A program made the position numbers and the translations under genes. From the IMG/VR virus record IMGVR_UViG_3300048892_000198, positions 46,729-110,728 of that record: a stretch of DNA of 64,000 nucleotides; one strand, given 5' to 3'. The notes beneath the pieces were generated by a model. That model made no database searches, was not told the origin of the DNA, and saw nothing but the letters and a program-made list of their open reading frames with translations. This DNA comes from a virus. This document shows, one piece after another, positions 6,829-64,000 of the stretch (position 1 is the first letter of the stretch; each line of letters opens with the position of its first letter).

Positions 6829-8307
6829 CTATCGGTTGTACCACTGGTCTTCGTCATCAGGCGGCATCGGATCGACATCGACGTTGTCACCGAAGTTCTG
6901 GACTTCTTCGTACCCCGTCTCAAGCGGCCGGAAGCTGATCGTCGGTCCATGGAATCCGAGCATCACCGTGCCGGTCGCGCCGCCGCGCTGTTTGGCGATG
7001 ATGATCTCGGCTTCGTTTCCGGCGTCTTTGGCGTAGTACCCCTCGCGGTAGACAAACCACACCCAGTCGGCATCGTTTTCGATAGCGCCTGACTCACGGA
7101 GATCGGCGAGCGTCGGGCGCTTGTCGCCGGTCTTCTTCTCGGGAGCTCGGTTGGTTTGAGACAAAGCGATCACGCAGAGCGCCTCCGCCTTCGACAGGTT
7201 TTTCAGCCCCTTGGTGATGGACGATACCTCGAGCTCACGGCTCTGACTCTTGTCGCCCATCATGAGCTGCAAGTAGTCGATGGCCGCGGCGGCGAGTTTT
7301 CTGGCGAGGATCCTGCCCTGGTCGATCTCACGCTTGATCTTCCGGATGATGCTGCGGAGCTCCTGCACCGTAAGGCCAGGCTTGTCGCCGACGAGGAGCG
7401 GCTGCTTACTCAGCACATCGGCCGCATGAAAGAGCCGCTCCCAGTCTTTGCTGGTGAGGAGGTTGAGGCGCATCTTCTGAAACTCCACATTGGCTTCGAT
7501 GCACACCAAGCGAAGCGCCACTTCCTGAGCCGGCATCTCGAGCGAGTGCAGGTAGACTGCGTCCGGGAGCGAGCCGTCCTTCGGCACGCGCGTCGACCGA
7601 ATCAAGCTCGAGGTGGCCAGGCTCGACTTACCCATGCCGGGCCTCGAAGCCACGATGCCGAGGTGTCCAGGTTGGTAGCCGCCGCTCTTCTTGTCGAGCT
7701 CACTGAATCCCGTCGTGAGCCCAAGCTGGCCGCCGTTTCGGAGGGATTCAGCGAGCTCCGTGAGGGCTTGTCCGGCGATGACGCCCGCAATCGCGTACGT
7801 AGTCTCGCGCTCGGTGTGAGCGAGCTCCCAGATCTTCTGCTCGTGCTCTTCGATGAGCACGCGCGTCGGCACGCCTTGAGGCTGATAGAGACGCGCGATC
7901 GTCTCGACCGCCACCGATTGCACTTGGCGCGCTGTCCAGGCCGCGATGATGCTCCGGCAGTGCTGCTCCAGCACCCCAGGACGCGACTCGACGGGGTACT
8001 CGTCAACGAGCTGAGCCAGGTAGGGCGTGCCGCCGACTTGATCGAGTCGATTGAGCGAGCGCAGATCGCCGGCGAGGCTCACGAGATCCACGTGCTTGCC
8101 CGCCTCCACGCTGATGCGGACGATGGAGCCCCAGATGATGGTGTTGGCGCCTGCATAGAAATGCTCGGGCTCTAGTCCCGTCGAGACCGCGCGATCGATG
8201 TCGCCTTCCGTCAAGATGGCCCAGCTGATGACGTAACCTTCGGCGTCCAGATCGTTGGGCGGCACGCGCCCGGGTGCGGGCGTGCCGTGCGAAGCTGGAT
8301 CGGTCAC
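6829..8307 (-). CDS. dnaB: replicative DNA helicase
   Basis: PPNDLDAE N-domain; Walker A ASRPGMGKSS; SLEM; IDYLQL; ALSQ; DLRESGAIENDAD; IAKQRGG; GTG start overlaps the upstream stop. Confidence 0.95.
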   Translation of the reverse strand: MTDPASHGTPAPGRVPPNDLDAEGYVISWAILTEGDIDRAVSTGLEPEHFYAGANTIIWGSIVRISVEAGKHVDLVSLAGDLRSLNRLDQVGGTPYLAQLVDEYPVESRPGVLEQHCRSIIAAWTARQVQSVAVETIARLYQPQGVPTRVLIEEHEQKIWELAHTERETTYAIAGVIAGQALTELAESLRNGGQLGLTTGFSELDKKSGGYQPGHLGIVASRPGMGKSSLATSSLIRSTRVPKDGSLPDAVYLHSLEMPAQEVALRLVCIEANVEFQKMRLNLLTSKDWERLFHAADVLSKQPLLVGDKPGLTVQELRSIIRKIKREIDQGRILARKLAAAAIDYLQLMMGDKSQSRELEVSSITKGLKNLSKAEALCVIALSQTNRAPEKKTGDKRPTLADLRESGAIENDADWVWFVYREGYYAKDAGNEAEIIIAKQRGGATGTVMLGFHGPTISFRPLETGYEEVQNFGDNVDVDPMPPDDEDQWYNR

Positions 8308-8747
8308 TTGAAGCGGCGCTCTCGCTGAAAGAAGTCGCACAAGATCCGGTCGACCTCATCCTCCACGCTGGAGCCGTAGATCCCTTGCCGCACGCGATGC
8401 TCGATGAGCCCAATGAGCTCCGAACGCACTTGCACGGGTCTGCCAGATTTGCGCATGCCCTGGAGCTCGGCGACGAGCCCATCGACGACTCGCCCGTATT
8501 CTTTGTCCTCAATGGACAGGCGCGTCATCTTTTTGCAGGCGCTCAAGATCGTCGTGTGGTCTTTTCGATGAAAGGCCTCAGCGATCTGAGCGTATGAAAA
8601 ATGACCCACCAGTCGCGCGACATACATGGCCGTGTGACGCGCCACCACGTGCGAGGTCACGCGGCGCGGACTCGTGAGCGAGGCGGGGTCGGCGGAGTAA
8701 TGCCGAGCTACCGCTTCGATGACCGCGGTGAGGAGTGGCTCTGTCAC
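8304..8747 (-). CDS. DnaA C-terminal (domain IV) HTH protein
   Basis: ARHTAMYVAR...SYAQIAEAFHRKDHTTILSACKK matches the Bac_DnaA_C signature. Confidence 0.9.
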   Translation of the reverse strand: MTEPLLTAVIEAVARHYSADPASLTSPRRVTSHVVARHTAMYVARLVGHFSYAQIAEAFHRKDHTTILSACKKMTRLSIEDKEYGRVVDGLVAELQGMRKSGRPVQVRSELIGLIEHRVRQGIYGSSVEDEVDRILCDFFQRERRFK

Positions 8748-15049: not shown

Positions 15050-15741
15050 GGCTTGTTCCCGAGGCGGCGAGCAAGCTCGGTGATATCGTCCTGGATCCCA
15101 GCGATGGCCTCGGCGGGAATGCCAAATATCGCCGCGTTAACCGCGCGCCGAAGCTTTGCGATCAAATCGGGCGAGCTCGGCTGCAAGGGCTCTCGCTGAT
15201 CCGATGCGCGGGCTGTCGGTTCCGGAGCCGCCGCGGGCTCCATCAGCAGCCCAAGCCGCACCTCGAGCGCATGCAGCGCCAATTCAAACTCATCCTCCTC
15301 GGGACGATTCCAGGTAGCGCGGCGGTGTTTTCTGAGTTGACGCACGAGGTGCAGCTTCGTCGGATAAAGTGGTTCTCCGCTGACACCGAAGGTCAGCTCT
15401 GCGATCCGGATGGCACCTTCCAGCGTTTCACCGAGCGACGCCGACGACTTCAACGTCGAGAGCACTGCCCGCACGAGCGCAGCCTCGCGATTGAATGCCT
15501 CTCGATACCCGAGTGGTCGCCTCCCGATCTGCAGCACCTGCACTAGCTGAGCTTGCTCGGCCGGCAAGAGCTCACCCCAAAACCTCGCCCCACTGTAGCG
15601 AGTGCGTTCATAGAGACGCTGGGCCTCTTGCAGATCGCTCAATGTCGTGTGGTCTGGATCGCCCATGGCAAGGCGCTCCACGGGCCAGGAATGATCCCAA
15701 GCGCTTTCAGTCTCTGGGCTGATCGGATCGGATTCGGTCAT
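15046..15741 (-). CDS. hypothetical protein
   Basis: 231 aa ORF directly after the DnaC-like gene. Confidence 0.65.
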   Translation of the reverse strand: MTESDPISPETESAWDHSWPVERLAMGDPDHTTLSDLQEAQRLYERTRYSGARFWGELLPAEQAQLVQVLQIGRRPLGYREAFNREAALVRAVLSTLKSSASLGETLEGAIRIAELTFGVSGEPLYPTKLHLVRQLRKHRRATWNRPEEDEFELALHALEVRLGLLMEPAAAPEPTARASDQREPLQPSSPDLIAKLRRAVNAAIFGIPAEAIAGIQDDITELARRLGNKP

Positions 15742-16456
15742 GGCTTATCCCTTCAGTACGCGGGCACCCGAGAAAGCTTCCTTGGCAGCAGGCGATTCGG
15801 TCGTGAGGATCGTGGAGAGGCCCTGGTCGCGCCGGCGCTCGTAGATCCAGATGAGTTCGGGGCCGAAGAATTCGTTCTTGAGAGAGGCGCGGTCGATGCT
15901 GTCGAGTACGAGCAGATCGAGCGTCGGGAGATCGTCGAGCGGGGAAGGTTCTTTGGCGGCGTAGGCCGCGCGCCATTGCCGAAACAGGCTCGGCACGTGC
16001 ACCGACCGATAGGTAGCGGTCGGGTAGTGCCGGATCGCATTCCTGAAGAGCACGACGGCGTATTGACGGGCAAGCTTGCCCTCGAGGAGGAGTTGCTGTT
16101 TACGCGGCGCGCGCTCCCCCGTGCCGCTCCGAAGAAACTCGCCGAGCGTCTCCTTGAACTGCTCGCCCTCTGCTCCCAGCATCGACAGGCGCACCGTCGA
16201 AAGCAGCGTGTCGACACCAGCTCGCTCGAGTCGGCGAGCCATCGCATACTCCTGGTAGCGCTCGCACGGCTTGAGCGAGACGCTTGCCTCGAGCGCTGTC
16301 ACTCCAAGTTTGACGAGCACGCCCGGAGAAAAGCAGTGTTCGGAGGAGACACAGCTGGCCCCTTGTGGTGGGCAGGCCGCGCACTCGCGCGTCCGAGACT
16401 CGAGACCCATCCAAAATGCCTGGGTCTCGCTTTCCACGACGGCACACAATTCAGAC

Positions 16457-22929: not shown

Positions 22930-23240
22930 GGGATCTCCTTGGGGGCAGGGATTGGGAATACGGATTTCGCCATCATGGCGTCGGCGATCTCGAAGGCGCG
23001 CGTCGCGATGGCATCGGGCGCAGTCGGCCGCATCTCGCGGCTGAGTTGCATATCTGCGGTCGCGATTGCTGCCGCCGCTAGCAGCTTTCGCTCAGTGTAG
23101 CGAGCCGACTCGAGTCGCTGGTTTAGTTCCCAGACGTAGCGCTCGCGCTCTTGCCTGTCGGTGCACCAACAGTCCAAGCACCGGGTGTTTTCGGCCGGCA
23201 CCATCACCTGGTTGCAGCCGCCGCATTTGACCCAGCTCAC
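22926..23240 (-). CDS. hypothetical protein
   Basis: Zn knuckle; AFEIADAMM motif. Confidence 0.6.
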   Translation of the reverse strand: MSWVKCGGCNQVMVPAENTRCLDCWCTDRQERERYVWELNQRLESARYTERKLLAAAAIATADMQLSREMRPTAPDAIATRAFEIADAMMAKSVFPIPAPKEIP

Positions 23241-24394
23241 TTGGATCCCTTCGGCGGGGGAGAGGCGATCTCCGAGATGAGGAGCACCATGGCGAGGAGG
23301 GTTTCGTTCTTGAGGAAGAGCGAGGGGCAGTCGTAGACGATGTCGTAGTAGAGATCGATCTCGGTCGGGGTAAACGATTTGACTGCCTGGCTCAGGTAGT
23401 CGGCGTTGACGTGGAGCTTGAAGCTCCCGGGCTCGGAGTCGACGACGGTGAGCTCGTCCTCGCCCTGGCTCCGCTCGCTCTTTCGAGTCGTGATCATGAC
23501 GACGCCGTCGGTGCAGGTGAGATCGATCTGCACGAAAGCGTCCTTGCCCTCCACGAAGTCGCTACCGGCGCTGACTGCCCGCACGCTCTCGAGCAGTGTC
23601 TCGCTCGAGACGCGGAAACGACGCTTGACGGGCACGCCCTCGGATAGCTGCTTCCATACCTGCGGGAACGGGCGCGCGAGCGGGGTTGCGCGGATACGAA
23701 TGCCGGGGGCGCTGGCGAAGATCTTGTGCTGATCGCGCGCGAGCGTGATGACGTGGTCTTTGGGCACCCCGCGCAAGGCCTCAAGCAGGTTGCGCGGCAG
23801 GAGGCACTCTTCGGCTGAGCCTCGCTCGGTAAACCAGCCCAAAGCCCGAGCCATCGCATGCCCGTTGACGGTCACCATTTTGAACCAAGCGTTGTCCCCT
23901 GGTGCGATGAGCGCGCCCGCGGGCATCTCGTCGCCCTTCGAGTCCATCGCGAACGCCACTTCGCTTGCGGCCTGGAGCAAGATCTTGGCCTCGACCGAAT
24001 AGAGTGGCGTGGGCTTTCCGGTGCTCGTGACGGGTGGGAAGTCACTCGGATCGAGAGCCGTCATCAAGAACTTTCTCTTGCTCGCGCTCGACTTGATCGT
24101 GACCTTGAACTTCGCGTCCACCGTGATCTCCACGTATCCTTCGGGGAGCTCATTGACGCGCGCCGACAGCTGAGCGTGGTTGAGGGCGGCCTTGCCTGCA
24201 GTCTTCACCTCGGCCTTGGCGTCGATGACGATGTCGAGCTGTCCGTCGGTCGTGGTGAAGAAGGCGAAGCCCTGGGCTACGCCGGCTTCGATGAGCAGGC
24301 ATTGGCGCACGCTCACCATGTCGGATTTGTTGATGGCCGCGCCCGAGCGCTTGAGGACAGAGAGGAGTTCTTGGCGACTGATGACGATTTGCAT
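23237..24394 (-). CDS. dnaN: DNA polymerase III beta sliding clamp (divergent)
   Basis: MQIVISRQELL...CLLIEA...TTDGQLDI...DPSDFP...VAFAM...FPQVW...VNADYL; about 385 aa. Confidence 0.85.
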   Translation of the reverse strand: MQIVISRQELLSVLKRSGAAINKSDMVSVRQCLLIEAGVAQGFAFFTTTDGQLDIVIDAKAEVKTAGKAALNHAQLSARVNELPEGYVEITVDAKFKVTIKSSASKRKFLMTALDPSDFPPVTSTGKPTPLYSVEAKILLQAASEVAFAMDSKGDEMPAGALIAPGDNAWFKMVTVNGHAMARALGWFTERGSAEECLLPRNLLEALRGVPKDHVITLARDQHKIFASAPGIRIRATPLARPFPQVWKQLSEGVPVKRRFRVSSETLLESVRAVSAGSDFVEGKDAFVQIDLTCTDGVVMITTRKSERSQGEDELTVVDSEPGSFKLHVNADYLSQAVKSFTPTEIDLYYDIVYDCPSLFLKNETLLAMVLLISEIASPPPKGSK

Positions 24395-24408
24395 GATGGA
24401 TCCTTGAG

Positions 24409-24936
24409 TCAGAGAGCGCCGAGCTCGGCGCGGTCGATGTATTCGCAATAAGCAACAGTGGGTGGACTCGGGTTGAGGTAGACGAGCGCGTCGCCGCCGA
24501 CATTCACGTACTGCACGTGCGGATCGAGACCGAAGTACTTCACCTCGGCGAAGCGCTGGAACTCCCCCTGCAGGCGTTCCCTCTCGTCCCGTAAGACGCG
24601 GTGCTTGTCGGCGCAGGCTACGGAGCAGAAGATGTCATCGCCGTCGTCGCGCACGAAGCCGTCGGTCTCGAGCCCGGTGTGCTGGTAACACTGTCCGCAC
24701 TCGAAGGTCCACCCGTTCTCGAGCATCCAAGCGAGGAGATCTCCATGGAACCCGTCGAGCTGCGGGTAGCGCTCGCATTCCACCTCCTCGAACGACAGCT
24801 CCAGCGCCTCGGCGCCGAGGCGCTTGGCCTGCAAGCCATGATCGCACCAGACGATGTGGCTCCTCTCATCGTCGGAGATCTTCCAGGCTTTGATCGCGAG
24901 CGGGTGGGCGTACGTGCCCATGTCCATGAGGGTCAT
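24409..24936 (-). CDS. hypothetical protein with Cys motif
   Basis: GWTFECGQC...FCSVAC. Confidence 0.65.
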   Translation of the reverse strand: MTLMDMGTYAHPLAIKAWKISDDERSHIVWCDHGLQAKRLGAEALELSFEEVECERYPQLDGFHGDLLAWMLENGWTFECGQCYQHTGLETDGFVRDDGDDIFCSVACADKHRVLRDERERLQGEFQRFAEVKYFGLDPHVQYVNVGGDALVYLNPSPPTVAYCEYIDRAELGAL

Positions 24937-25945: not shown

Positions 25946-26464
25946 TCAGTCATGGGACACCAGCCCATCGCCCGGCTCGAGCCCTGCCCAGGCTAATTCG
26001 GCCAGCACGAGCATGCGAGCGACGTAGATCTCCGCGTGCTCCATGGCGTCTTCCGCCCGCGCGAACTCCCGCGTCGTCTCGGAAAGAGGACGAGATCCGC
26101 ACACGCTCTCGACGATCCAGAACGTCCTCTGTCCACGATTTACGATCCCGCATCGCTTCACGGTTGCGCGGAGCGGACCGATCTTGGCGCTGTAACGTCG
26201 GTGACTATCTCGGTGCCAATGCAGGCGGAGTGGCGCCATTGGCTGGAGCCCATCCTTGAGCCGCTCGCGGCCCTCAGCGGTGATCGTGTACCCGACTCGT
26301 TGCATGTCGCTCTCGGTGTGCCGCGCGTATCCGAGCACGGCCAAGGACTCGAGCGTGCGTCCGTTACGGTGCGGAAAGTACCAGGCCCCGTCTGAGTTCT
26401 GGTTGGGCTCGGAGAGCTCGCCGAGGATGCGCCATTGAGCATCGGAAAGGCGCGGGCGCTTCAT
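25946..26464 (-). CDS. hypothetical protein with wHTH-like N-terminus
   Basis: LSDAQWRIL...TLESLAVLGY...YTITAEGR. Confidence 0.6.
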   Translation of the reverse strand: MKRPRLSDAQWRILGELSEPNQNSDGAWYFPHRNGRTLESLAVLGYARHTESDMQRVGYTITAEGRERLKDGLQPMAPLRLHWHRDSHRRYSAKIGPLRATVKRCGIVNRGQRTFWIVESVCGSRPLSETTREFARAEDAMEHAEIYVARMLVLAELAWAGLEPGDGLVSHD

Positions 26465-27231
26465 GGCGTCCTCAGGAACTGCTCGTCCCGCTTGGCAACG
26501 GCGCTCCGCGGCCCGGCCGCGCGCAGCACCGCAGGCAATAGGTCATGGGCGTCGATGTCTCCATAGATGCCCGAGGCGTACGTCTGGTTGGCTTCGACGA
26601 CGGCCCAGCCGCGCCCTTCGATGATGCCCACGTCGAGCACGACCGATGACGGCAGGCGGTCGACCTCGCTGGCGAGTACTTCCTCAGCGAAGGCGATGGC
26701 TGAGGTGCGAGTGGCGTCTTCGTCGCGCTCGCCGACGAAGCGATAGAACTCGGCCGACAAGATCTTGCCGTCGAGTACGTGGCACCGATATTCCACCTCG
26801 AACGACACGACCTCGGACACCAAGATCGGGCAATCGTTGTCGATGTGGCGGAGGTGCAGATCTGCGCCGCGCTCGAAGATCCCCTTCTCGAAGACCTTGT
26901 CGTTGGCGGGCTTGAAGAACAACCGCCGATCGAACCGGTGCACGCGCCACTTGTCGGTCAGGACGACCTCACGCTTCAGGAAGTGCTCTGGCAGGTAAGG
27001 CAGCCAATCATTCGGGGGCTCGAGGAGCCCGAGCCCCGCCCGCTCGGCCATGATGTCGCAAAACGTCATCTCCCCGAACGCACACAAGACTTCGGGCCTC
27101 GGATCGGGCAGCCTAAAGCGAAGGCACCGATGCACGCCCCAGCCGGCCTTCAGCGCGGCCTGCCAGATCGCTTGCGAGTCCTGGCTGAAGCGCTGCGAGA
27201 GCAAGATCGTGGGGTTCCTCGCGGTCGTCAT
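26461..27231 (-). CDS. ATP-grasp domain protein (R2K clade/DUF4343-like)
   Basis: LPEHFLKREV; FFKPANDKVF; VSEVVSFEVEYRCHV; VLDVG...WAVVEAN...SGIYG. Confidence 0.8.
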   Translation of the reverse strand: MTTARNPTILLSQRFSQDSQAIWQAALKAGWGVHRCLRFRLPDPRPEVLCAFGEMTFCDIMAERAGLGLLEPPNDWLPYLPEHFLKREVVLTDKWRVHRFDRRLFFKPANDKVFEKGIFERGADLHLRHIDNDCPILVSEVVSFEVEYRCHVLDGKILSAEFYRFVGERDEDATRTSAIAFAEEVLASEVDRLPSSVVLDVGIIEGRGWAVVEANQTYASGIYGDIDAHDLLPAVLRAAGPRSAVAKRDEQFLRTP

Positions 27232-27611
27232 CCCATCACCGTGCTGTATTCGCGCCGGTCCGGCGTCGGGGGCTTCTTCGGGACGGGCAGGCCCTTCCAT
27301 GCCGCCCGAAATGCGACGACGTAGTGTGGCTCTTCCTGGATGCACTCCCTGACCTGCTCGAGGAGGGAGCCTACGTAGTAGCTCGAACTCCCGCCCATGG
27401 CGTGCTCGGCTTTCGCGTGCGTCACTTCCACGCGATGGCATTTCTCGCATGCCGCCCAAGCGCTCCAGCTGCCGTCGCTGAGTGACGCACAACGCCAATA
27501 GAGCGTGCCCTTCGGGATGAGGTGCCCGCACTCTGAGCATCGGTGCGCCTTCCGCGCCCGCCGCTGCTCAGAGTGGGTCGCGACAGGGGGATTGTCGATG
27601 CCTTCGCACAT
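27228..27611 (-). CDS. Zn-binding phage protein (paralog of 25348..25701)
   Basis: RARKAHRCSECGHLIPKGTLY...CEKC. Confidence 0.7.
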   Translation of the reverse strand: MCEGIDNPPVATHSEQRRARKAHRCSECGHLIPKGTLYWRCASLSDGSWSAWAACEKCHRVEVTHAKAEHAMGGSSSYYVGSLLEQVRECIQEEPHYVVAFRAAWKGLPVPKKPPTPDRREYSTVMG

Positions 27612-27614
27612 GGG

Positions 27615-27986
27615 TCAGTCCTCCGTGGTTGAGGCGAGGTAGCCGGGGCCGAAGCGGTCCACGAGCTCGCGCGCTGAGCAGCTGTCGGGCAGCACTTCCG
27701 TGGGGCCACCAGCCGCGTCGATTTCTCCGAGCGTCATGATCCCAAGGATGGAGGCGCAATCGCTCGTGGTGTCCTTGTCGAGGTAGAGCTCGACCTCGGC
27801 ATCATCCCGGAGCTGCACGAAGTCGTTGCCCGAGCAGGACTCGTCGAAGTGTTCATGCCAGCGGCGAGCGGCGTCGGGGGCGCTCCAGGCCACGACGTAG
27901 TCGCCGTGGCCGAAAAAAAGAAAGAGAAGAGGTCGAGGAGAGGCGGTTGGTAGTTTGAACGCTGGCGGGCGATTGGAGTCGGTCAT
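27615..27986 (-). CDS. hypothetical protein (paralog of 20776..21276)
   Basis: YVVAWSAPDAA...GPGYLASTTED. Confidence 0.6.
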   Translation of the reverse strand: MTDSNRPPAFKLPTASPRPLLFLFFGHGDYVVAWSAPDAARRWHEHFDESCSGNDFVQLRDDAEVELYLDKDTTSDCASILGIMTLGEIDAAGGPTEVLPDSCSARELVDRFGPGYLASTTED

Positions 27987-33250: not shown

Positions 33251-33489
33251 CACGGAAACCCACCCGGCGCGATCTGCTGGTGGTGATCGGACGCCTGCAG
33301 AACCTGATCGGCGTCGCCCGCATGAACTACGAAGACGACCGCAACCAGAACGGCATCGAGCACGGGCGCGCGGCGGCTGCCGAAGCGCACTCGCTGTGCA
33401 TCGGCGCGTTGAGTCAAGACCCACCGGTCGATGTCACTCGCGGCCCATGGGCCGCGAGGGAGCTCTTGCAGCGGCGGCTGAGGAAGTGA
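33247..33489 (+). CDS. hypothetical protein
   Basis: Coupled ORF. Confidence 0.55.
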
Positions 33490-36187: not shown

Positions 36188-36598
36188 GTGTCGTTCGATT
36201 CCTTCGACTCCAGCGCCTATCCGGGCTTCGGTGACGACGCCAGCGTCCCAGCTCCAGCTCCGGTGCCCGCGGCGCCTCCCCCTCAGGCCATGGCGCCGCT
36301 CCCGGCTCCCGCCCCTGCCACGACGCCTGCCGCCGCGCGCCGCCGCGCCGGCGCCGCCATCGTGCTCACGGGCGTCGGCGTCGGCACGGGCGCCCTCCTC
36401 GGTGGTCTCTGGGGCGCCGGCAGCGGTCTCTTTCTCTCAGGCGCCCTCTCGAACGCCCTCCGCGCCGCAGTGCTCTGGCGATCGGACTACGCCGACGACC
36501 GCAAGGAAGCGACCAAGGCCACGGTGATGACCATCCTTGGCGTCGGCATCGGCGGCTACCTCGGCTACCGCGCGAAGCAAGCGCGGGATGACGACTGA
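36188..36598 (+). CDS. Gly-zipper membrane protein
   Basis: Pro/Ala linker, then GxxxG-rich TM helices. Confidence 0.65.
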   Translation: MSFDSFDSSAYPGFGDDASVPAPAPVPAAPPPQAMAPLPAPAPATTPAAARRRAGAAIVLTGVGVGTGALLGGLWGAGSGLFLSGALSNALRAAVLWRSDYADDRKEATKATVMTILGVGIGGYLGYRAKQARDDD

Positions 36599-36952: not shown

Positions 36953-37792
36953 ATGAGTGAAGTCGTATTGATGGACGGGCAGTGGACGATGTGTCGGTTT
37001 CTCCGGCCCTTCGAAAACTTCGAGCGCGTCTACCAGGGCAAAGACGGCACGACTCCGATCGCCTTCCCGGGCGACTTGGATCTCTTCGCGCAGAAGGGCG
37101 TGACGGGTTACGACCCGAACCTCATGGCGGGCGTGACCGTGCCCTACGGATCGCGCGTCACGATTTGGATCCCGCAGACCATTGCGGGCACCGTGGTCGA
37201 CGCCCTCTACCAGTACCAGATCCTCTGGCGTCTCCGGAACGTCCGCGACTACCGAGCGGGACAAGCCGAGGGGCAAGCAACGCCCAATCAAAACTACTCG
37301 GGCTACCACCTATCGACGAGCGGCTTCGGTCAGCCCGAAGTCGCCGGGGCCCAGCCCAATTCCCCGAACTCCCGCTTCTTCATTCCGGGCGCGGTGCGTA
37401 CGGCGGCTTTCCCGCAAGCCGAGCCCGCAAGCGGGCTCTCGGGCGTCGTGCACCTGACGGGTGAAATGCTGACGCCGACCCTCGATCCCATCTGGGTGCA
37501 GCCCCTCACGCCGAAGGGCACTCCCGGGATCTGGCAGCAGGGCGCCTATGTCGGCAGCTCCCACACGAACAACGGCGGACCCTCGTGGCTGACGTTTGAG
37601 TGTCAGGCGCTCGGCGACGAGATGAGCATCTTGGCTTTCAAGATCCCGCCCGGCGAAGGCTCGCCTCCCGCCTGGGATTTCTCCGCCGCCGCCCCCGGCG
37701 ACCTTTCCTTCTCGAACACCTTCGGCAACGGCAATGGGCAGAATCAGCGCACGCCCTACACGTCGATCCTGGTGACGACGGGCACGTCGTAA
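36953..37792 (+). CDS. hypothetical protein, possible virion structural protein
   Basis: 279 aa, rich in Gly/Pro/Thr, beta-like composition; AAGGA RBS. Confidence 0.65.
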   Translation: MSEVVLMDGQWTMCRFLRPFENFERVYQGKDGTTPIAFPGDLDLFAQKGVTGYDPNLMAGVTVPYGSRVTIWIPQTIAGTVVDALYQYQILWRLRNVRDYRAGQAEGQATPNQNYSGYHLSTSGFGQPEVAGAQPNSPNSRFFIPGAVRTAAFPQAEPASGLSGVVHLTGEMLTPTLDPIWVQPLTPKGTPGIWQQGAYVGSSHTNNGGPSWLTFECQALGDEMSILAFKIPPGEGSPPAWDFSAAAPGDLSFSNTFGNGNGQNQRTPYTSILVTTGTS

Positions 37793-37891
37793 GCAGAGGC
37801 AGCTCGGGCGCCTACGGAAGGACCATGCTGCGCACCACTCACTACGGCGAGCCCATAGACAGCAGGCAACTGTCTCACTAAGCTCGCGCAC

Positions 37892-40225: not shown

Positions 40226-41254
40226 TCAGGGAAGCGCCGCGAGATCGTCCCAGCGTATTGCTTTCCGAGCGGCCTCCACGTCGCTCATGCCGGAGGCGTT
40301 CGGGAAGAGGCGACCCTGACCGCTCGCCATCGCTGGGTCGAGCCCTCGCTCGTAGCGTAGGTACATCTCGTCGCACTGGGCGTTGCTGAGCCGGGCTTCG
40401 CCGAAGCAGATCGACAAGAGGTGCACGGCGCGCGGGTCGAGCCCGCGCACGTCGAGTGCCAATAGGCCATGGGCATCGGCTTCGGTGACCAGATCGGAGT
40501 CGTCCTGCACGGCATGCCACAAGAATTCGAGGCATTCGTGCACGTTGGGCACTGTGACTCCTCTGGGGATCTCGACATTCATGGCGACGAGCGCGAGGTG
40601 GCGCCGGTCGGCCGCTTCCTCATAGGTGTATAACTCGACCGTTTTCTCGATCGTCTTCTCGATGTCGACGTTGACGCGGTTGACGTAGACGACTTCTCCC
40701 TCGTCCACGAAGCGATCGAGATCGCTCGGGGAGACATCGAGGTCCACGCCTTCATCTTTCTCGGTCTCCTCCTCGATCTTTTGATCGGCCAGCCCGATCT
40801 TCACCGCCGCCGCCCACCAGCGATCGGCCTCCGCGCTCCGGTTGTCGGTCCAGGAGCAGATCCCGTCGCCGGATTTCCACATCTCGATCTCGACCAGGTC
40901 CTCGTCGCACTGGTGTGCGCCGAGCGCGAGCGCGGTATAGAGCGCCGTCCCCCAACCGTTGCCCTTGATGAGCACGCCATCGGGCGTGTGTGAGCGCGGC
41001 AGCCCAGTGATCTGGGAAGGTTCGTTCGAGTGCTCTTCGTAGTAGCCGCGGCCGAGGCGTAAAAGCGGATCAGAAGCCTTGAGCCCACGGAGGCTCACAA
41101 ACGTGCCGTCGGTCACGACGAGCGCCGGCTCATGCGTCTTCGGGTTGGCGACCAGTCCAATCACGGTGAGCCCGGCGAGCGACCAGTTCTCGGGCGCTTT
41201 CTTGGGCTCGGGAGCGCGGAGCGCAAACGACGTATTCTTCCGCAAGCGCCGCAT
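40226..41254 (-). CDS. hypothetical protein (possible GNAT-like segment)
   Basis: 342 aa; KGNGWGTALY resembles GNAT motif A; has its own promoter. Confidence 0.65.
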   Translation of the reverse strand: MRRLRKNTSFALRAPEPKKAPENWSLAGLTVIGLVANPKTHEPALVVTDGTFVSLRGLKASDPLLRLGRGYYEEHSNEPSQITGLPRSHTPDGVLIKGNGWGTALYTALALGAHQCDEDLVEIEMWKSGDGICSWTDNRSAEADRWWAAAVKIGLADQKIEEETEKDEGVDLDVSPSDLDRFVDEGEVVYVNRVNVDIEKTIEKTVELYTYEEAADRRHLALVAMNVEIPRGVTVPNVHECLEFLWHAVQDDSDLVTEADAHGLLALDVRGLDPRAVHLLSICFGEARLSNAQCDEMYLRYERGLDPAMASGQGRLFPNASGMSDVEAARKAIRWDDLAALP

Positions 41255-41263
41255 GAGTCGGCG

Positions 41264-41347
41264 ATGGTAGAGTCACGCCCTGGTCCTTGCAAATTTTCCG
41301 CCGCTCGCCCCGAAAAGTTGCAGGCTGAAGGCCCCTCAGTATAGGCT
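41264..41347. promoter_or_regulatory. divergent sigma70-like promoters
   Basis: Minus strand TTGCAA-N17-TACCAT (41292-41264); plus strand TTGCAG-N18-TAGGCT (41318-41347). Confidence 0.55.
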
Positions 41348-41443
41348 TTCCCCACTCGATCGGTATTCGGCAGCACCCCGGCCGGATCAGGACGATGGAG
41401 CTCGGGCCGCGATCCGTCGCGCGGCCCAGGAGCACCTCTGTCC

Positions 41444-43585
41444 ATGGCCGATCGAAGCAGCGTTGCGAGTCGAAATATCGGGGCCGTGGGCACCCTCCTC
41501 GGTGCCGGAAATTCGCTCGAAAACGTCAACACGTCGCTGCTCGACGACGGTTGCTTCGCCTACGTCGAATCCGAGCACGAGCACTACGAGCTCCACCGCG
41601 ACGATACGACGCCGCCCTCCCCCCCGAACATCATCGAGCCCATCGCAGGCCCCGGCCGCTGGGTGCCGGCGACGGGCGGGACGATCGGTGCGCAGGGCTT
41701 CCAGGGCGCCCAAGGGGCGCAGGGCTTCGGCGCGCAGGGGGCGCAAGGATCTCAGGGCGCTGGCACGCAGGGCGCGCAGGGTGCCCAAGGCAACACGGGC
41801 GGCGCGCAAGGCGCCCAAGGCGCGCAGGGTCGTCAAGGCGCGCAGGGCGCTGGCACGCAGGGCGCGCAGGGATTCCAGGGAGCCACGGGCGGGTCGGGCA
41901 ATCAGGGTAGCCAGGGGGCTCAAGGCGCGCAGGGCGCCCAAGGCTTTCAGGGTGCCACGGGCTCGACTGGCAACCAAGGAGCGCAGGGCGCCCAAGGCGC
42001 CCAAGGCAATCAAGGTTTTCAGGGCGCGACGGGCACGGGAGCCCAAGGTGCGCAAGGCGCGCAGGGCATCGGTGCGCAAGGATCTCAGGGTTTCCAGGGC
42101 GCAACCGGCGCGGGCGCGCAGGGCGCGACGGGCACGCAAGGCTTTCAGGGTGCTCAGGGCTTCCAAGGCGGGGGCTTCCAGGGCGCGCAAGGATCGACCG
42201 GTGCGCAGGGATCCGGGGGCGGCGCTCAAGGCGCCCAGGGTGCGACGGGCACGCAGGGTTTCCAGGGCGCCCAAGGGCAAACGGGCGCAGGATCGCAGGG
42301 TGCCCAGGGCGCCACGGGCGCACAGGGCTTTCAGGGAGCGGCCGGCACCGGCGGTGCGCAAGGAAGCCAAGGCGCGACCGGCGCTGGCGGCGCACAGGGC
42401 GCGCAAGGCGCGACCGGCACGGGATCGCAGGGCGCGCAAGGCGCAACCGGCACCGGAGGCGCTCAAGGATCGCAGGGCGCCACGGGCGCAGGATCCCAAG
42501 GCGCTCAAGGCTTCCAAGGCGCGACCGGGGCTGGGTCGCAAGGCGCGCAGGGCGCGACGGGCACGCAGGGCTTCCAGGGTGCGCAGGGTTTCCAAGGCGG
42601 GGGCTTTCAGGGCGCGCAGGGTTTTCAGGGCGCAGTCGGTCCGGGCGGCGGCGCGCAGGGTGCCCAAGGGGCAACGGGCACGCAAGGCTTCCAGGGCGCC
42701 CAAGGCTTTCAAGGGGGAGGATTCCAGGGCGCGCAGGGAGCAACCGGCACGCAGGGCTTCCAAGGCGCCACGGGCGCAGGATCTCAAGGCGCTCAAGGCG
42801 CCACGGGCTCGCAGGGCTTTCAGGGTGCGACCGGCACGACCGGTGCTCAAGGCGCGCAGGGCGCGACTGGGACCACGGGTGCTCAAGGCGCTCAGGGCGC
42901 GACCGGCACGACGGGCAATCAAGGAGCGCAAGGCGCTACTGGCACAACCGGAGCTCAGGGCGCCCAAGGCGCGACGGGCACGACGGGAGCTCAAGGCGCT
43001 CAGGGCGCGACGGGCACCACGGGAGCTCAAGGCGCGCAGGGCGCGACGGGCACGACGGGCAATCAAGGAGCGCAAGGCGCTACTGGCACAACCGGAGCTC
43101 AGGGCGCGCAGGGTGCGACGGGCACGACTGGTGCTCAAGGCGCTCAGGGCGCGACGGGCACCACGGGCGCGCAGGGCTTCCAAGGTGCTACTGGCTCGGG
43201 ATCGCAGGGCGCGCAGGGCGCAACGGGAGCTCAAGGCGCTCAAGGCGCGCAGGGCTTTCAGGGATCCGCCAACATCGTCAACGAGGTCAATGCTGGTAAC
43301 TCCGGCACAGCCCTCACCATCAACTTCACGACGGGCCCCAATCAGCTGACCACGCTGACCGGCAACGTGACCTTCACGTTGACGGCGCCGAGCAACTCCC
43401 GCCACGTGCAGGTCCGCATGGTGCAGGACGGTACCGGCGGTCGCACGGTGACTTGGCCCGCTGCCGTCAAGTGGGCAGGCGGCACGCAACCCACCTGGGT
43501 GACGACGGCGGCTGCCATCAACATCGCGAGCTTCTACTACGACGGCACCAACTACTGGGGTGTCGGGTCGACGGGCTTCGCATGA
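41444..43585 (+). CDS. collagen-like fibre protein 1 with phage fibre head domain
   Basis: Shared N-domain [11 protein letters not shown]; long G-X-Q/G-X-T tract; head [12 protein letters not shown]...WAGGTQP. Confidence 0.85.
41687..43263 (+). repeat. Gly-X-Y collagen-coding repeat
   Basis: GAQ/GFQ/GAT triplets; distal part is a 12-aa unit GATGTTG(A/N)QGAQ. Confidence 0.95.
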
Positions 43586-59603: not shown

Positions 59604-60640
59604 TGCCGACCCCCGCACAAGCCGCGAGCTTCATCGCGCTCGAGTCCGAAGACTACGATGGCCTGGGCGGTGCCAATGGTTACGGCTGGGCGCGGGCGAC
59701 GACCGATGACGTAGCAGCCGGCATCGGCGTCTCGACCGAAGAGGCCTACCGCTTGCTCAAGGCGGCAGCGAAGAAGGGGCTCGTGCATCAGGATGCCTTC
59801 CGCCGGAAGGGCGTCTCGACGGGTCGATTCGGTGCGAGCCAGGTCGGTTGGGCGATCTGGGAAGTGCACCTCACGCGCGAACAGACGATCGAGCGTGATG
59901 GTGAAGCCCGGGAGCCCGATGAACGCTCGGTGAAGTTTCACCGGGACGCAGTGCTGGACGAATTCGTGCGGGGCGAGCAGGTGACCGGCAAGACGATGCT
60001 GCGAGCGGCTGAAGCGTGCGGCGTCGACATCGAGCCCGCGCTCAAGCGTGCCCTGAACAAGCCCGGCATCTGGGTGCGTCCCCTTACCTCGAACCTCCCC
60101 TCCGATGCGCAAAGCGCGCATGCGTGTGCCATTTACGGCACGCTCAGGCAGTCGGGAGATCAGTCGATGAAACCGAATATCCGTGACGATGAAGTCGACG
60201 AAGCGCCCCCCGGCCCGCGGATCGTCGCGCTTCGGTTGGCAGGATTCGAGGAAGTGAGGCGTGAGTTTGAGGGACGGTTCCGGGAACTCAGTGAGCGGAG
60301 AGCACGCCTCGATCGCGCGGCATATCGTGAAGAGCGCGAGCGTCTGATGGATGAGCAGGCGGCGGCTCAAGACTCGGTCAACGCCAGGTACCCGCTCCCT
60401 GCTGCACTCGCCCCGAACGCCTCCCACTACGTCTGGGTGCTCTTCTCGCGTTCGGATACGCCGATCTCGAGTGAGGGCCCCTTCGGGCCCTACTCCCAGA
60501 GCGTCGCCGATCAGTTTGCACGCATCGGCGCGAGCGAAGGCATTCACGATCGCGCGGTCAGCGTTGGGAAAGATCCCGAAGCGCGTGGTTTCAAGATCGA
60601 GCGCCGCTACGCGGCCCGCACCGGCACTCGCCTCCTCTGA
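59603..60640 (+). CDS. multi-domain hypothetical protein (wHTH-like N-terminus)
   Basis: TGATG-coupled; TTDDVAAGIGVSTEEAYRLLKAAAKKGLV. Confidence 0.65.
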   Translation: MPTPAQAASFIALESEDYDGLGGANGYGWARATTDDVAAGIGVSTEEAYRLLKAAAKKGLVHQDAFRRKGVSTGRFGASQVGWAIWEVHLTREQTIERDGEAREPDERSVKFHRDAVLDEFVRGEQVTGKTMLRAAEACGVDIEPALKRALNKPGIWVRPLTSNLPSDAQSAHACAIYGTLRQSGDQSMKPNIRDDEVDEAPPGPRIVALRLAGFEEVRREFEGRFRELSERRARLDRAAYREERERLMDEQAAAQDSVNARYPLPAALAPNASHYVWVLFSRSDTPISSEGPFGPYSQSVADQFARIGASEGIHDRAVSVGKDPEARGFKIERRYAARTGTRLL

Positions 60641-60644
60641 ACGC

Positions 60645-60890
60645 TCAGCGCGCGAGCGCTGCTACTAGGGGAGCTATCTCCTTGCGGATGTCTGCCTGTT
60701 CCAGCACCTCGGCGGGCTCGAAGAGGATGTGCTGCAGACTCGTGATGTTGGGGCGCCCGATGGCGCTGTATTTTCCTGCGTAGATGTCGTCTTTCATGCC
60801 GGGCAGTAGAGCGGCTACCGCGAGCATTCGATCCTCTGCGGTCCATTCGGATGTGAGGCCTTGGGCGATGCGCTCAGTAGAGAAAAACAT
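60645..60890 (-). CDS. hypothetical protein
   Basis: AAGGAG RBS; MFFSTER. Confidence 0.55.
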   Translation of the reverse strand: MFFSTERIAQGLTSEWTAEDRMLAVAALLPGMKDDIYAGKYSAIGRPNITSLQHILFEPAEVLEQADIRKEIAPLVAALAR

Positions 60891-60895
60891 TCGAC

Positions 60896-61093
60896 CTACT
60901 CCTTGTTGGGGTGCTTCCACGCGAGACATTTGCAGCCTTCTTCCAGGCAGGGGACCGAGTGCTGAGCTGCTGGATGCCCGCAGCTGCATAATGGACCGCG
61001 TGCGCGATCGTAGATAAATTCTAGCACTTTGCCGATTGTGTATCCCCCGGCGCCGATGATGCAGATCGCCGTCGCCGCCTGCACAGGGTCCAT
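60896..61093 (-). CDS. small membrane protein with Zn finger
   Basis: TM, then CSCGH...H...C...CKC. Confidence 0.6.
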   Translation of the reverse strand: MDPVQAATAICIIGAGGYTIGKVLEFIYDRARGPLCSCGHPAAQHSVPCLEEGCKCLAWKHPNKE

Positions 61094-61098
61094 GGGGC

Positions 61099-62511
61099 TC
61101 ACCAGGGACGATCCTTCAAGAGAGCATGTTGCCCGAGCGCCCGCAGTCGCTCGACCTCGCTGAGCTCGAATTGATGCTCGGGCGTGTTGCGCGCGCGGTC
61201 CGCGCTCGCCGCCTGCATGTTGTAGACGCTCAAGATCTGATAGACGCAGGTGTAGCGAGCGCCGGCCATCTCGAGCAGCGGCCACATGATGGCCTTGTCG
61301 ATGGCGTACTCGGTCCAGGTGCCGTCCGGCCGCAGGAGACAGCGGGGCTCAGGGATCTCGCTCGCCGTCGCCACCGCATCCAGGTACCCGAGGCTCAGCC
61401 GTTTCGCCAATCCCGCCCGGAACGTCTTCAGGTGCGTCGCGCGCCAGTCGGCATACCGCACGCGCGTGCCGGGCGCGTAGGGCGCGGCAAACCCCACCTC
61501 GCCGTCGGAAAACATAAACTGACCGTAGGTGAGCCAGGGCTCGCTCTTGTGCGCGTAGGCGAGGGCCAAGATTTCGAGCGCTCGATCGTGCGCGAGCCAA
61601 TCGTCGCCATCGAGCCAGACGACGACCTCGCTATCGGGGAGATTTTTCCAGATGTGCCAGCAGTTTTCGAGAGCGGCCTGGCGGACTTCGTTGTGCACGA
61701 CCTGGAGCTGGAGATCGGTCTCGGCATTGAAGAGCGCGATCTCCTCGGTCCGGTCTTCGCTCTTGGCGTCGACGACGATGTGCGTGTAATTGCGAAAAGT
61801 CTGGGACTGCACGCTCGAGATGCACTTCTGGATCCAGCGCTCCGCGTTGAGCGCGGTCGAGACGATGGTCATGTGCATCGGCTCTTCCTTGGGTACGAGC
61901 ACGCAGAAGTTGTGCCGCCCCATCCAGTGCTGAGCTTGGTGCACCTCCATCAGCTGCCGAAGCTGCGCCGTGCGCGCCTCGTCCAAGACCCAGCCATGGA
62001 TCCGAAAGCGCGTGAGCCAGTACTCGGGAGGCTGCAGATTGATGTGCCCTTCCCACTCCTGACCGGGAGCCGCCGCAGACCACACGATCACGTCCGTCGC
62101 GCGAGAGGCAACGTTAGCGACGATCGAGAGCGAGTGCTGCTCGGAGATGTGCTCGGCCGTCTCGGTGCAGATCACGCAGTGGAAGCCACGGAGGAGTCGA
62201 GCGTCATCGGCGGCGCTGCCAATGGGCTCCGTCAAATCGAACCGCTCGACATGCACCCCCGGCTCGATCATGTCGATCGCAAACGGCGAGTACTCGCCCC
62301 CGATGGTGCTCCAGCCGAGCTCGTTCAGGCGAGCGGTCTGTAGTCCGATGCCGCACCCGATGTCGAGGGCGCTCGGCTGGGCTCCGACCACGGCATGAAT
62401 GCAGTCGGCGAGCTTTCGGTAGTTGTCCCGGCAGCCGCGCATCTGCTCGAAAAAAGCGGCGTCGTGGGGATCGGAGCTCGGAGGTTTATCGGTGTTTTCA
62501 GGGTTTCCCAT
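61099..62511 (-). CDS. SAM-dependent methyltransferase fused to GT2 glycosyltransferase
   Basis: ALDIGCGIG...ETAEHI...AAAPGQ...HINLQPPEYW; TIVSTALNAERWIQKCI...WLDGDDWL. Confidence 0.85.
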   Translation of the reverse strand: MGNPENTDKPPSSDPHDAAFFEQMRGCRDNYRKLADCIHAVVGAQPSALDIGCGIGLQTARLNELGWSTIGGEYSPFAIDMIEPGVHVERFDLTEPIGSAADDARLLRGFHCVICTETAEHISEQHSLSIVANVASRATDVIVWSAAAPGQEWEGHINLQPPEYWLTRFRIHGWVLDEARTAQLRQLMEVHQAQHWMGRHNFCVLVPKEEPMHMTIVSTALNAERWIQKCISSVQSQTFRNYTHIVVDAKSEDRTEEIALFNAETDLQLQVVHNEVRQAALENCWHIWKNLPDSEVVVWLDGDDWLAHDRALEILALAYAHKSEPWLTYGQFMFSDGEVGFAAPYAPGTRVRYADWRATHLKTFRAGLAKRLSLGYLDAVATASEIPEPRCLLRPDGTWTEYAIDKAIMWPLLEMAGARYTCVYQILSVYNMQAASADRARNTPEHQFELSEVERLRALGQHALLKDRPW

Positions 62512-62519
62512 TGCGCGAG

Positions 62520-62549
62520 ACAGTAGCGTGCTATCTTTGGCAATGGCAA
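62520..62549 (-). promoter_or_regulatory. sigma70-like promoter, probably leaderless
   Basis: TTGCCA-N18-TACTGT, 8 nt before ATG 62511. Confidence 0.5.
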
Positions 62550-62559
62550 GGCTATAACC

Positions 62560-62760
62560 ATGGAAGAAGACATCGGGAGCGGCGACGAGCCCTGCTTGGC
62601 ATGCGGCGCCCAAGCTGGGGTGGCGTGCAAAGCGGATGGTCACTCTCGGGTGGGCCCACGAGGGCTCGCGTGCCGCGCTTGTCGCGGCAAGGGTGAGGTC
62701 GGGCTGACGAAGTGCCCTTCGTGCAAGGGATCGGGAAGGGAAACCAATGTCTCGGCGTAA
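62560..62760 (+). CDS. DnaJ-type CxxCxGxG zinc-finger protein
   Basis: CRACRGKG...CPSCKGSG. Confidence 0.65.
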   Translation: MEEDIGSGDEPCLACGAQAGVACKADGHSRVGPRGLACRACRGKGEVGLTKCPSCKGSGRETNVSA

Positions 62761-62776
62761 CCATCGTGCAGGAACC

Positions 62777-63541
62777 ATGAAAATTCTTCTGATTGGGTTA
62801 GTGCTCGGTCTCGCCGCTTGCGGCGCGCCCTTCACCGCGAACGAATTCACGCCCTCAGGTGAAGCCGGGGCTCAGACCATTGGATCGGGCGCGGGCCAGG
62901 GCGGCGATTCTTCGGGCTCCGCCGGAGCCGCCGGAGCCGTCCACGATCCAATGGCCAGAGCTGGCGCGGGAGGCGCCGCAGCCGGAGCGCCTTCGGTCGA
63001 TTTTGCGGGCGCAGCAGGCGCCGTCCCCGACGCGATCCCGACGCCCTACGTGCCTCTGCCCTGCTCTTCCGAGCGCAACGTGTCGGGTGGCTATGACAGC
63101 TCGTTCAATACGGTGCCGGCGTGCCTGCGCACCCGCGAAGCGCTCAATACCGTCGGCTGCACCAACTGGGACCATCGCTCGATCACCGTCAACGGCGTGA
63201 TAGCGACCTGCGGCGTGCCGCTCACCTTCCCGCCGAGCGCGGACGGATACACGTACATCGATCTCGGCCCCGGCTCAGCAGGGGACGCGGCGATCCGGTG
63301 GTTTCTGACCGCCCCCGCCCCGAACGCCTGCTCGGCGCGGCAATGGGTGCAGGGCGATCTCTACGCTCCAGGAGAGATCATGGTCGGCGTGTGCGACGCG
63401 CCCGGGAGCACGAAGAGCTGCGAGCTCGGGAAGACTTATGCGTTCTACTGCTCGGATAGCTCGACCAATCACTGCAGCGAGACCGGCCCCGGCGCGAACG
63501 GCTGGATTTCGGTGTGGACGCTGGTTTCGATTTGCAAGTAG
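62777..63541 (+). CDS. myxobacterial-style Cys-rich lipoprotein
   Basis: Lipobox LAAC; Gly/Ala linker; FNT..AC...GCTNW..RSITVNG domain. Confidence 0.75.
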   Translation: MKILLIGLVLGLAACGAPFTANEFTPSGEAGAQTIGSGAGQGGDSSGSAGAAGAVHDPMARAGAGGAAAGAPSVDFAGAAGAVPDAIPTPYVPLPCSSERNVSGGYDSSFNTVPACLRTREALNTVGCTNWDHRSITVNGVIATCGVPLTFPPSADGYTYIDLGPGSAGDAAIRWFLTAPAPNACSARQWVQGDLYAPGEIMVGVCDAPGSTKSCELGKTYAFYCSDSSTNHCSETGPGANGWISVWTLVSICK

Positions 63542-63622
63542 TCTCCGTACGTGATCGATCTGTGAAAATCGAAACGAAGGCAACATGGTGCCTACAGAAA
63601 CCATGGCCGCCACGAGCGCCTG

Positions 63623-63964
63623 AAGTGAAGGGAGCTCGGGCCCTACGGAAGCCGAGACTTACTGGCGGTCTACGACTCAAGGAGAGCGGCTCCGTGTGGA
63701 GGGAGCTCGGTCCCGATAGAAATCCGAGACTCGAAGTGTCCGACAAAGCGCAAAGGGAGCTCGATCCCGACAAAAATCGAGACATGGCCCGCGTGTTGAC
63801 GACAGTGCGAGGGGAGCTCGGGCCCTACGGAAGCCGAGACGTTGGCAAAGTGTTCAAAGGAAGGTGCAAAGGGAGCTCGGACCCTATGGAACCCGAGACA
63901 CCCCGGGCGACACCAATAGGTCCAGCTTGTGTGAAGGGAGCTCGGGCCCTATGGAAGCCGAGCC
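63623..63964. CRISPR. degenerate CRISPR-like array: 6 repeats (36-37 nt) and 5 unique spacers; no cas gene in window
   Basis: Consensus GTGYRAAGGGAGCTCGGNCCCTAYGGAANCCGAGAC at 63623, 63694, 63748, 63805, 63864 and 63929; spacers 35, 17, 21, 23 and 29 nt; CTCGG/CCGAG hairpin. Confidence 0.75.
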
Positions 63965-64000
63965 AAATCCGGCCACTGCTGAATATTTGACGCGCGGGCG

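Follow-up and report, generated by a model that had tools for sequence, protein, structure and literature searches.

A second, diverged type V-M repeat array in a virus that carries its own Cas12m

Type V-M CRISPR systems, among them those of MmCas12m/Cas12m2 and GoCas12m, pair an effector of about 577–614 amino acids (aa) with 36-nucleotide (nt) repeats that fold into a pseudoknot plus stem and end in GAGAC, with spacers of about 36 nt and no adaptation module. The guide–target duplex in the Cas12m2 structure is only 17 base pairs (bp) long (PMC10442227); among characterised Cas12m proteins that bind without cutting, RuvC triads of the N-D-D type (Asn first) occur as a natural variant, and the precursor CRISPR RNA (crRNA) is processed independently of RuvC (PMC11013384). 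A virus-encoded Cas12m was first reported in a 2026 preprint on myxophage MV-1 (bioRxiv 10.64898/2026.09.14.751636), in which MvCas12m (610 aa, D-E-D triad) adjoins a single plain array of 8 spacers with one consensus repeat; that locus lacks cas1, cas2, cas4 and a trans-activating crRNA, and no protospacer was found for it. Two further kinds of element resemble parts of such systems: CreR and CreA mini-CRISPRs and viral Cracr arrays, which are defined by a partial match, flanked by a protospacer-adjacent motif (PAM), to a cas or toxin promoter, and solitary repeat units (SRUs) and Racrs, which are guide-free viral mimics of host repeats. Here we describe an array of seven non-identical repeat units at the 3' end of the 110,728-bp virus record IMGVR_UViG_3300048892_000198 from IMG/VR (G000; annotated as linear and estimated to be 82% complete). 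The stretch analysed, referred to as the window, comprises 64,000 nt (record 46729–110728). The array certainly belongs to the type V-M family of CRISPR arrays, and its virus encodes the cognate Cas12m.

The seven units, R0–R6, occupy 63572–63964. Positions are window coordinates unless the record is named, R denotes a repeat and S a spacer, and bit scores come from a covariance model based on 29 distinct repeats of the family, taken from three viruses.

62747–63541, plus strand: last protein gene 5' of the array (264 aa, from the list of open reading frames (ORFs)); without a Pfam family; stop codon 7 nt 5' of the leader core
63549–63568, plus strand: leader core, ACGTGATCGATCTGTGAAAA, a homologue of the leader next to the repeats in canonical Cas12m arrays
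63572–63607, plus strand: R0, the most diverged unit; 24.2 bits; stem CATGGT/ACCATG, with all 6 pairs and the GGC/GCC pseudoknot helix retained
63608–63622, plus strand: S0, 15 nt, between R0 and R1
63623–63658, plus strand: R1; 50.0 bits; core the same as that of R4
63659–63693, plus strand: S1, 35 nt, of normal length; target search negative
63694–63730, plus strand: R2, 37 nt; 41.6 bits; one additional base in the loop or 3' strand
63731–63747, plus strand: S2, 17 nt, the length of the Cas12m2 guide–target duplex (PMC10442227)
63748–63783, plus strand: R3; 47.4 bits; compensatory G-C to A-U change at pair 17–30
63784–63804, plus strand: S3, 21 nt; seed matches at chance level only
63805–63840, plus strand: R4; 49.6 bits
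63841–63863, plus strand: S4, 23 nt, between R4 and R5
63864–63899, plus strand: R5; 51.6 bits
63900–63928, plus strand: S5, 29 nt; exact 22-mer absent from IMG/VR
63929–63964, plus strand: R6, ending in GAGCC; 48.5 bits; A(-2) to C, which converts G12·A35 to G-C
63965–64000, plus strand: 36-nt tail to the contig end (S6), plain flank or a final guide-like segment; contains no repeat start
37791–37823, plus strand: truncated solitary repeat of the GGCA...GCC type, without the 3' stem strand; 22.3 bits, E 0.0017

An earlier note on this DNA, made from the letters alone, had described six repeats ending in GAGAC, the last in GAGCC, separated by spacers of 35, 17, 21, 23 and 29 nt. All of this was confirmed, with GAGAC in R1–R5, repeats of 36 nt throughout R1–R6 except for R2 (37 nt) and spacer lengths S1–S5 as given when 36-nt repeat boundaries are used; R0 adds a seventh unit. 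The statement that no two repeats are identical holds for full-length comparisons of any two units, but not for the 29-nt core (positions 8–36), which is the same in R1 and R4; these differ in their 5' seven bases only. The distances from unit to unit are irregular (51, 71, 54, 57, 59 and 65 nt). R1–R6 score 41.6–51.6 bits (E 1e-8 to 3e-11) and R0 has an E value of 5e-4 over 288 kilobases (kb) and of 1.2e-6 locally; the reversed control of the repeat pattern search gave 0 matches, and the six-unit signal is far beyond chance. With filters off, the covariance search found no extra units upstream of R0 or within the 36-nt tail. An altered 3' end is typical of the terminal repeat of an array, and R6 fits this. 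The array was not called by Tandem Repeats Finder, and no Rfam family was found in window 60000–64000. Across the 110-kb record, the covariance search located the repeat family in two arrays and one truncated copy and nowhere else; the truncated copy is intergenic, just 5' of an 18-codon ORF and a glycosyltransferase/methyltransferase gene (Pfam).

The second of these arrays lies beside an effector gene. The window array had been called Cas-less, which is true of the 64-kb window, in which no cas genes were found, but not of the record: a 514-aa Cas12m is encoded at record 452–1996 on the minus strand. The protein matches PDB entry 23vw_A, 'CRISPR-associated DNA-binding protein Cas12m' (phmmer E=1.6e-37, residues 125–509), and a second Cas12m, UnCas12m4a (E 1e-6); it also has a weak match to the Cas12f1-like TNB family of Pfam and carries C-terminal CxxC...CxxC and DQDANN motifs. 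The nearby Cas12/TnpB-derived effector that the earlier note had expected beyond position 64000 thus exists, at the opposite end of the contig. A canonical array of five identical 36-nt repeats with 35–38-nt spacers (record 59–383) begins 68 nt past the cas12m stop codon, on the same strand as cas12m and on the strand opposite to that of the window array. An effector homologous to Cas12m with an adjoining, co-directional array of repeats of about 36 nt identifies the system as type V-M, and because the same repeat family stands beside a Cas12m gene on the same record, the virus with the window array is not Cas-less.

The RuvC residues, singled out in the earlier note for inspection, suggest that this Cas12m belongs with the binding-only variants (PMC11013384). 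In the alignment, Asn replaces the RuvC-I Asp (A[IV]NFGWR) in 3/3 viral Cas12m orthologues (L011:452–1996 minus; L016:6001–7464; L017:4596–6026), and with Asn at this position the Cas12m of the record is expected to bind DNA in a PAM-dependent manner without cleaving it. At 477–514 aa the three viral proteins are shorter than the solved Cas12m proteins that they match (577 and 614 aa). No match to Cas1 (PF01867) or Cas2 (PF09827) was found in the 110-kb record with positive controls, cas4 not having been searched and the record being 82% complete, a result consistent with the description of the guide set as non-adaptive. A two-strand covariance search, which an imperfect anti-repeat could escape, found no anti-repeat copy outside the arrays in the 110 kb.

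One canonical spacer matches the virus itself. The third, C3 (L011:166–203 minus), agrees at 35/37 bases with codons 37–49 of the virus's own cas12m (L011:1850–1887), where TTC flanks the site 5' on the non-target strand; guide positions 6 and 28 are mismatched. No shuffled control came closer than 11 mismatches, and the homologous site in the relative G001 has 5. The match may reflect autoregulation, or the guide may be directed against close relatives.

The fold of the repeats links both arrays to Cas12m. The 29 distinct repeats share a 6-bp helix (columns 13–18/29–34) and a 3-bp helix (8–10/19–21) that together form an H-type pseudoknot. Standard pairs fill 97.7% of the 261 pair cells, compared with 29–43% in slid-partner controls; double-sided changes number 20, compared with 5.9 in shuffles; and three pairs covary (10–19, 17–30 and 18–29). 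G12, A35 and C36 are each at least 90% conserved across the family, and the 5' seven columns are the most variable. The Cas12m2 crRNA has a 36-nt scaffold in which the first 7 nt are disordered, with six Watson–Crick pairs whose 3' strand occupies -8 to -3, a G paired with A(-2), and base-specific reading of C(-1) and A(-2) (PMC10442227). The geometry of the family repeat equals that of this solved crRNA, with G12, A35 and C36 at equivalent places. The likeness to type V-M repeats that the earlier note had proposed is therefore borne out by the presence of the same family beside a Cas12m homologue on the record and by the matching fold. Both the sequence scores and the pseudoknot-and-stem scaffold assign the window array to this family, with R0 and R6 deviating at A(-2).

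The window array also has an array leader. The best non-self match to the 20-nt canonical leader core in the whole of G000 (4 mismatches) sits 3 nt 5' of R0, and the repeat-proximal leaders of G000, G001 and the related loci L111 and L117 can be aligned, with the core conserved.

Set against the described systems, the locus shares with type V-M a homologous effector, the 36-nt pseudoknot-plus-stem repeat with its GAGAC end and the lack of an adaptation module; an Asn-first triad occurs naturally there, and the 17-bp duplex suits short guides (PMC10442227, PMC11013384). Unlike those systems it is virus-borne, has a shorter effector and has two arrays, one with non-identical repeats and spacers of 15–35 nt. 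With MvCas12m it shares a viral effector gene, an adjoining array, the lack of cas1 and cas2 and, as far as the window spacers go, no protospacer found; a diverged second array, a self-targeting spacer and solitary repeats do not feature in the description of MvCas12m. The CreR, CreA and Cracr RNAs come close in other respects, with degenerate repeats that keep the effector-binding fold, as found here, short guides, non-cleaving use of the effector and multi-unit phage arrays. However, a PAM-proximal partial match to a cas or toxin promoter, by which they are defined, was not found for the window array in scans of its own genome, cas12m and leaders; the effector that viral Cracrs hijack belongs to the host, whereas the Cas12m here is encoded by the virus itself; and the cited literature on such RNAs describes no type V-M case. 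As with SRUs and Racrs, the CRISPR repeats are viral and stand apart from a full cas locus, and relatives of this virus also carry solitary units, but the window array comprises seven units with spacers that are all unique, is preceded by a leader and has its cognate effector in cis.

Related viral sequences with Cas12m carry the same repeat family, which adjoins cas12m in at least five other contigs, in several arrangements.

G001 (135 kb, complete): Cas12m 72% identical; array of 23 repeats, the older of which drift with compensatory changes
G001, L016:5821–5974: mini-array of three repeats (spacers of 15 and 25 nt) that stops 32 nt short of the cas12m ATG
L111: Cas12m 70% identical; two-repeat mini-array at the same place (L111:5855–5962), with stems unlike its own canonical repeat, still paired
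G002/L119: Cas12m 41% identical; main array plus eight diverged solitary units; a further unit lies within cas12m, in frame
L117: Cas12m 66% identical; canonical repeat marginally closer to R1 and R4–R6 than that of G000 is
L113–L116: Cas12m 60% identical; no array within 6 kb of cas12m

As the mini-arrays of G001 and L111 (spacers of 15, 25 or 38 nt) end about 30–40 nt before the cas12m start, they place repeat handles inside the 5' untranslated region (UTR) of cas12m. The unit inside cas12m of G002/L119 (G002 36323–36358 minus; L020:16323–16358; 30.7 bits; stem CCTGAT/ATCAGG) encodes part of a 23-aa lineage-specific insertion that is absent from the Cas12m of G000 and G001. The solitary units of G002 lie at 5693, 9030, 11751, 12584, 17974(+), 19048, 27874 and 38797, over 41 kb (L019/L020). 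Several of them have compensatory stems, and several lie 0–40 nt 5' of candidate start codons, open frames being ubiquitous at this GC content. The 14 nt past the unit at 27874 are the first 14 nt of a main-array spacer (G002 33327–33356), which hints that arrays and solitary units may swap segments by recombination. To judge from these sequences, fold-keeping non-canonical repeat units outside the main array are a habit of the lineage. Four single matches to the repeat pattern in IMG/VR (L012–L015) came without an array and were treated as chance.

We lean, with modest confidence, towards reading the window array as a functional satellite array that is driven by its leader, processed by Cas12m and supplies a fixed set of short guides for silencing targets outside the genome. 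The array would be transcribed from its own leader, and Cas12m would cut the transcript within the repeats, which characterised Cas12m proteins do independently of RuvC. Each product would consist of a repeat handle and a 15–35-nt guide, and the guided Cas12m would sit on PAM-flanked targets and block their transcription or replication. The targets would lie outside this virus and its known relatives, most likely in competing mobile elements or host genes. Lacking an adaptation module, the guide set would be fixed and altered only by recombination, deletion and point mutation; such changes would account for spacers that are irregular and shortened and for repeats that drift yet fold. The earlier note's point that short spacers suffice for binding agrees with the 17-bp duplex of the Cas12m2 structure (PMC10442227), by which guides of at least 17 nt, that is, five of the six bounded spacers, would be sufficient.

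The way in which the repeats have changed speaks for selection acting on the RNA. In 7/7 window units, the five core bp of the stem are paired. The compensatory stem change that the earlier note had seen in R3 (CTCGA/TCGAG versus CTCGG/CCGAG) is real, pair 17–30 having gone from G-C to A-U; R0 carries double changes at pairs 14–33 and 15–32 (U-A to A-U and C-G to U-A), has A and G instead of G and A at positions 12 and 35, and still forms 6/6 pairs. R3 and R0 together thus hold three double compensatory changes that keep their stems. Of the six bounded spacers, five fall short of the 35–38 nt typical of the canonical array, whereas all repeats remain 36–37 nt long, which indicates that insertions and deletions have spared the repeats. 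Relative to the canonical repeat, 2/75 cells are changed at columns that are invariant in the other two viruses and 25/105 at variable columns (Fisher p=4e-5), a p-value that overstates the difference, as many substitutions are common to several window repeats and the cells are not independent.

Besides this non-independence, a number of observations weigh against a functional array. Pair 18–29 is broken in R1, R4, R5 and R6; A(-2), which is base-read in Cas12m2, is altered in R0 and R6; the stem bases that R0 alters at pairs 14–33 and 15–32 are invariant elsewhere in the family; and S0 is only 15 nt long. A simple scan found no sigma-70 consensus promoter at the window array, in a virus that encodes its own sigma factor. 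The 264-aa gene has a homologue in G001 (42% identity) that is not followed by an array, so conservation of the window array is not supported. Full-length scans of S0–S6 against G000, G001 and G002 gave chance-level matches only, in line with the earlier report of no full spacer match within the window, and scans of the same genomes with 10-nt PAM-proximal seeds gave 3 matches where 2.2 are expected. Searches of 32 other loci (384 kb; blastn-short) revealed no targets of S0–S6. The search for phage targets that the earlier note had proposed was run against INPHARED and IMG/VR. INPHARED yielded no target for the array (blastn), its lone 38-nt mycobacteriophage match (E=6) being noise; in IMG/VR, exact 22-mers of S1 and S5 were absent, S0, S2–S4 and S6 not having been scanned there. 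The array also had no match among PLSDB plasmids (blastn).

The array might instead be a decaying relic, a former CRISPR array, perhaps received by recombination from a related virus, in which deletions account for the short spacers and the repeats are wearing away by point mutation. The irregular spacer lengths, the non-identical repeats and the failure to find targets would all be expected of a relic, as would the lack of an array at the syntenic place in G001 and the position of the window array at the junction of a 94-kb inversion, a sign of recombination. Pair 18–29 has been lost in four units and A(-2) in two, the truncated repeat at 37791 shows that decay occurs, and Shmakov et al. judged unconserved, target-less type III mini-arrays to be degraded repeats (PMC10120712). 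Decay should, however, break the stem and truncate repeats, whereas here the core pairs persist in every unit with three double compensatory changes, substitutions avoid the family-invariant columns, the repeats are full length although the spacers shrank, and the leader is retained. We consider a relic unlikely, while still a serious contender. We regard it as improbable that the array acts on a Cas12m that belongs to the host or to a competing virus, either sequestering this foreign effector in the manner of Racrs or redirecting it to silence its own genes in the manner of Cracrs. Multiplexed crRNA-like phage arrays with degenerate repeats and short spacers have been described (bioRxiv 10.1101/2024.10.29.618823), and R1 and R4–R6 are slightly nearer to the canonical repeat of L117 (27–29/30) than to that of G000 (26–27/30). 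Yet a difference of 1–2 nt is marginal and the virus's own Cas12m, with repeats of the same subfamily, is a simpler user; no window spacer matches a cas12m gene or promoter of this virus, or of the relatives searched, beyond chance, and neither the Cas12m nor the DnaB searches indicate a host.

Autoregulation of the CreR type, in which short guides with partial matches would steer Cas12m to its own promoter or to the array leaders, has been demonstrated for types I-B, I-E and V-A (bioRxiv 10.1101/2023.03.10.532045), and features that could serve it recur around cas12m: the C3 self-match in G000, the 5'-UTR mini-arrays in G001 and L111 and the in-frame repeat in G002. For the window array we find it very improbable. 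Around cas12m and both leaders (record 1800–2400, 384–520 and 110150–110300), S0–S6 gave 0 PAM-proximal seed matches of at least 7 nt, compared with 1.0 in shuffles, and the array does not lie beside cas12m on the contig. A 13-nt prefix match of S0 in the cas12m of G002 was put down to chance, with no T-rich PAM and an E value of 0.024 that is uncorrected for seven spacers. The earlier note had also named a coding repeat or a dispersed element like repetitive extragenic palindromic (REP) sequences, which would not be RNA-guided. A 158-codon open frame does span the array, but it has no Pfam match, and R0–R6 fall in all three phases (1,1,0,0,0,2,1), which together with the irregular spacing marks the array as neither coding nor a tandem repeat. 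The repeat is moreover restricted to two arrays and one truncated copy in 110 kb, and its family is linked to cas12m in other contigs. The phase analysis and this linkage refute the alternative.

A bolder proposal, which we advance tentatively and think rather unlikely, builds on the satellite array. A nuclease-inactive Cas12m would have ceased to serve defence and become a programmable gene regulator of the virus itself, with repeat handles spread beyond the canonical array. These handles would take the forms of a recombination-proof, leader-driven window array with minimal guides, mini-arrays in the cas12m 5' UTR, a unit inside cas12m and solitary units. Together with the anti-cas12m spacer they would constitute a network that sets the level of Cas12m and silences chosen host or viral genes during infection. 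Some spacers contain expression-signal motifs, with Shine–Dalgarno-like AAGGAG or AAGGAA in S1 and S4 and TTGACG in S3 and the tail S6 (weak enrichment); these could hint at promoter or 5'-UTR targets or be meaningless.

Cas12m biology, a myxophage Cas12m with a plain array and degenerate regulatory mini-arrays, including phage-borne multiplex ones, are already known. New here is a second array in which the repeats have diverged with the fold kept and the guides are trimmed towards the 17 nt of the effector. If functional, it would be a natural, recombination-resistant and non-adaptive multiplex array for CRISPR interference (CRISPRi), and its seven natural repeat variants would map the scaffold positions that Cas12m tolerates, an aid in designing compact CRISPRi tools, base editors and circuits. 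Even as a relic, it documents the evolution of an array in the absence of Cas1–Cas2. The units in sister viruses and the window array together hint at viral use of a binding-only Cas12 for regulation rather than immunity.

Comparison with G001 clarifies the setting of the two arrays. About 94 kb of G000 (15.8–110.0 kb) are inverted in comparison with G001, and the window array sits at one of the junctions; these are at record 15690–15757 and the window end, and at G001 40544–42007. Both genomes have the motif CGCAACTTTTTG at the junctions (G000 ~15730, G001 41337), and G001 has it in the cas12m 5' UTR as well. The first 25.7 kb of G001 (from position 1) have no counterpart in G000, which fits the 18% estimated to be missing, and the contig ends of G000 do not overlap. 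Synteny with G001 thus points to a missing segment of about 25 kb rather than to adjoining contig ends; this unassembled segment sets the true distance between the window array and cas12m, and the two arrays probably face outward from the contig ends into it.

As to the host and the neighbouring genes, no relatives of Cas12m were found in the species-genome collection with the Cas12m of the record as query, and the 264-aa gene abutting the array had one weak IMG/VR match and none in metagenomes. The virus DnaB is at best about 35% identical to cellular homologues, which come from many phyla and so give no clue to the host. These searches speak neither for nor against the Myxococcota, the group in which the earlier note had proposed to look for spacer matches. 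This DnaB helicase is encoded at window 6832–8340, and the window also encodes a sigma-70-family factor (2786–4000), a beta-clamp-like protein (23240–24448) and an R2K ATP-grasp protein (26464–27540).

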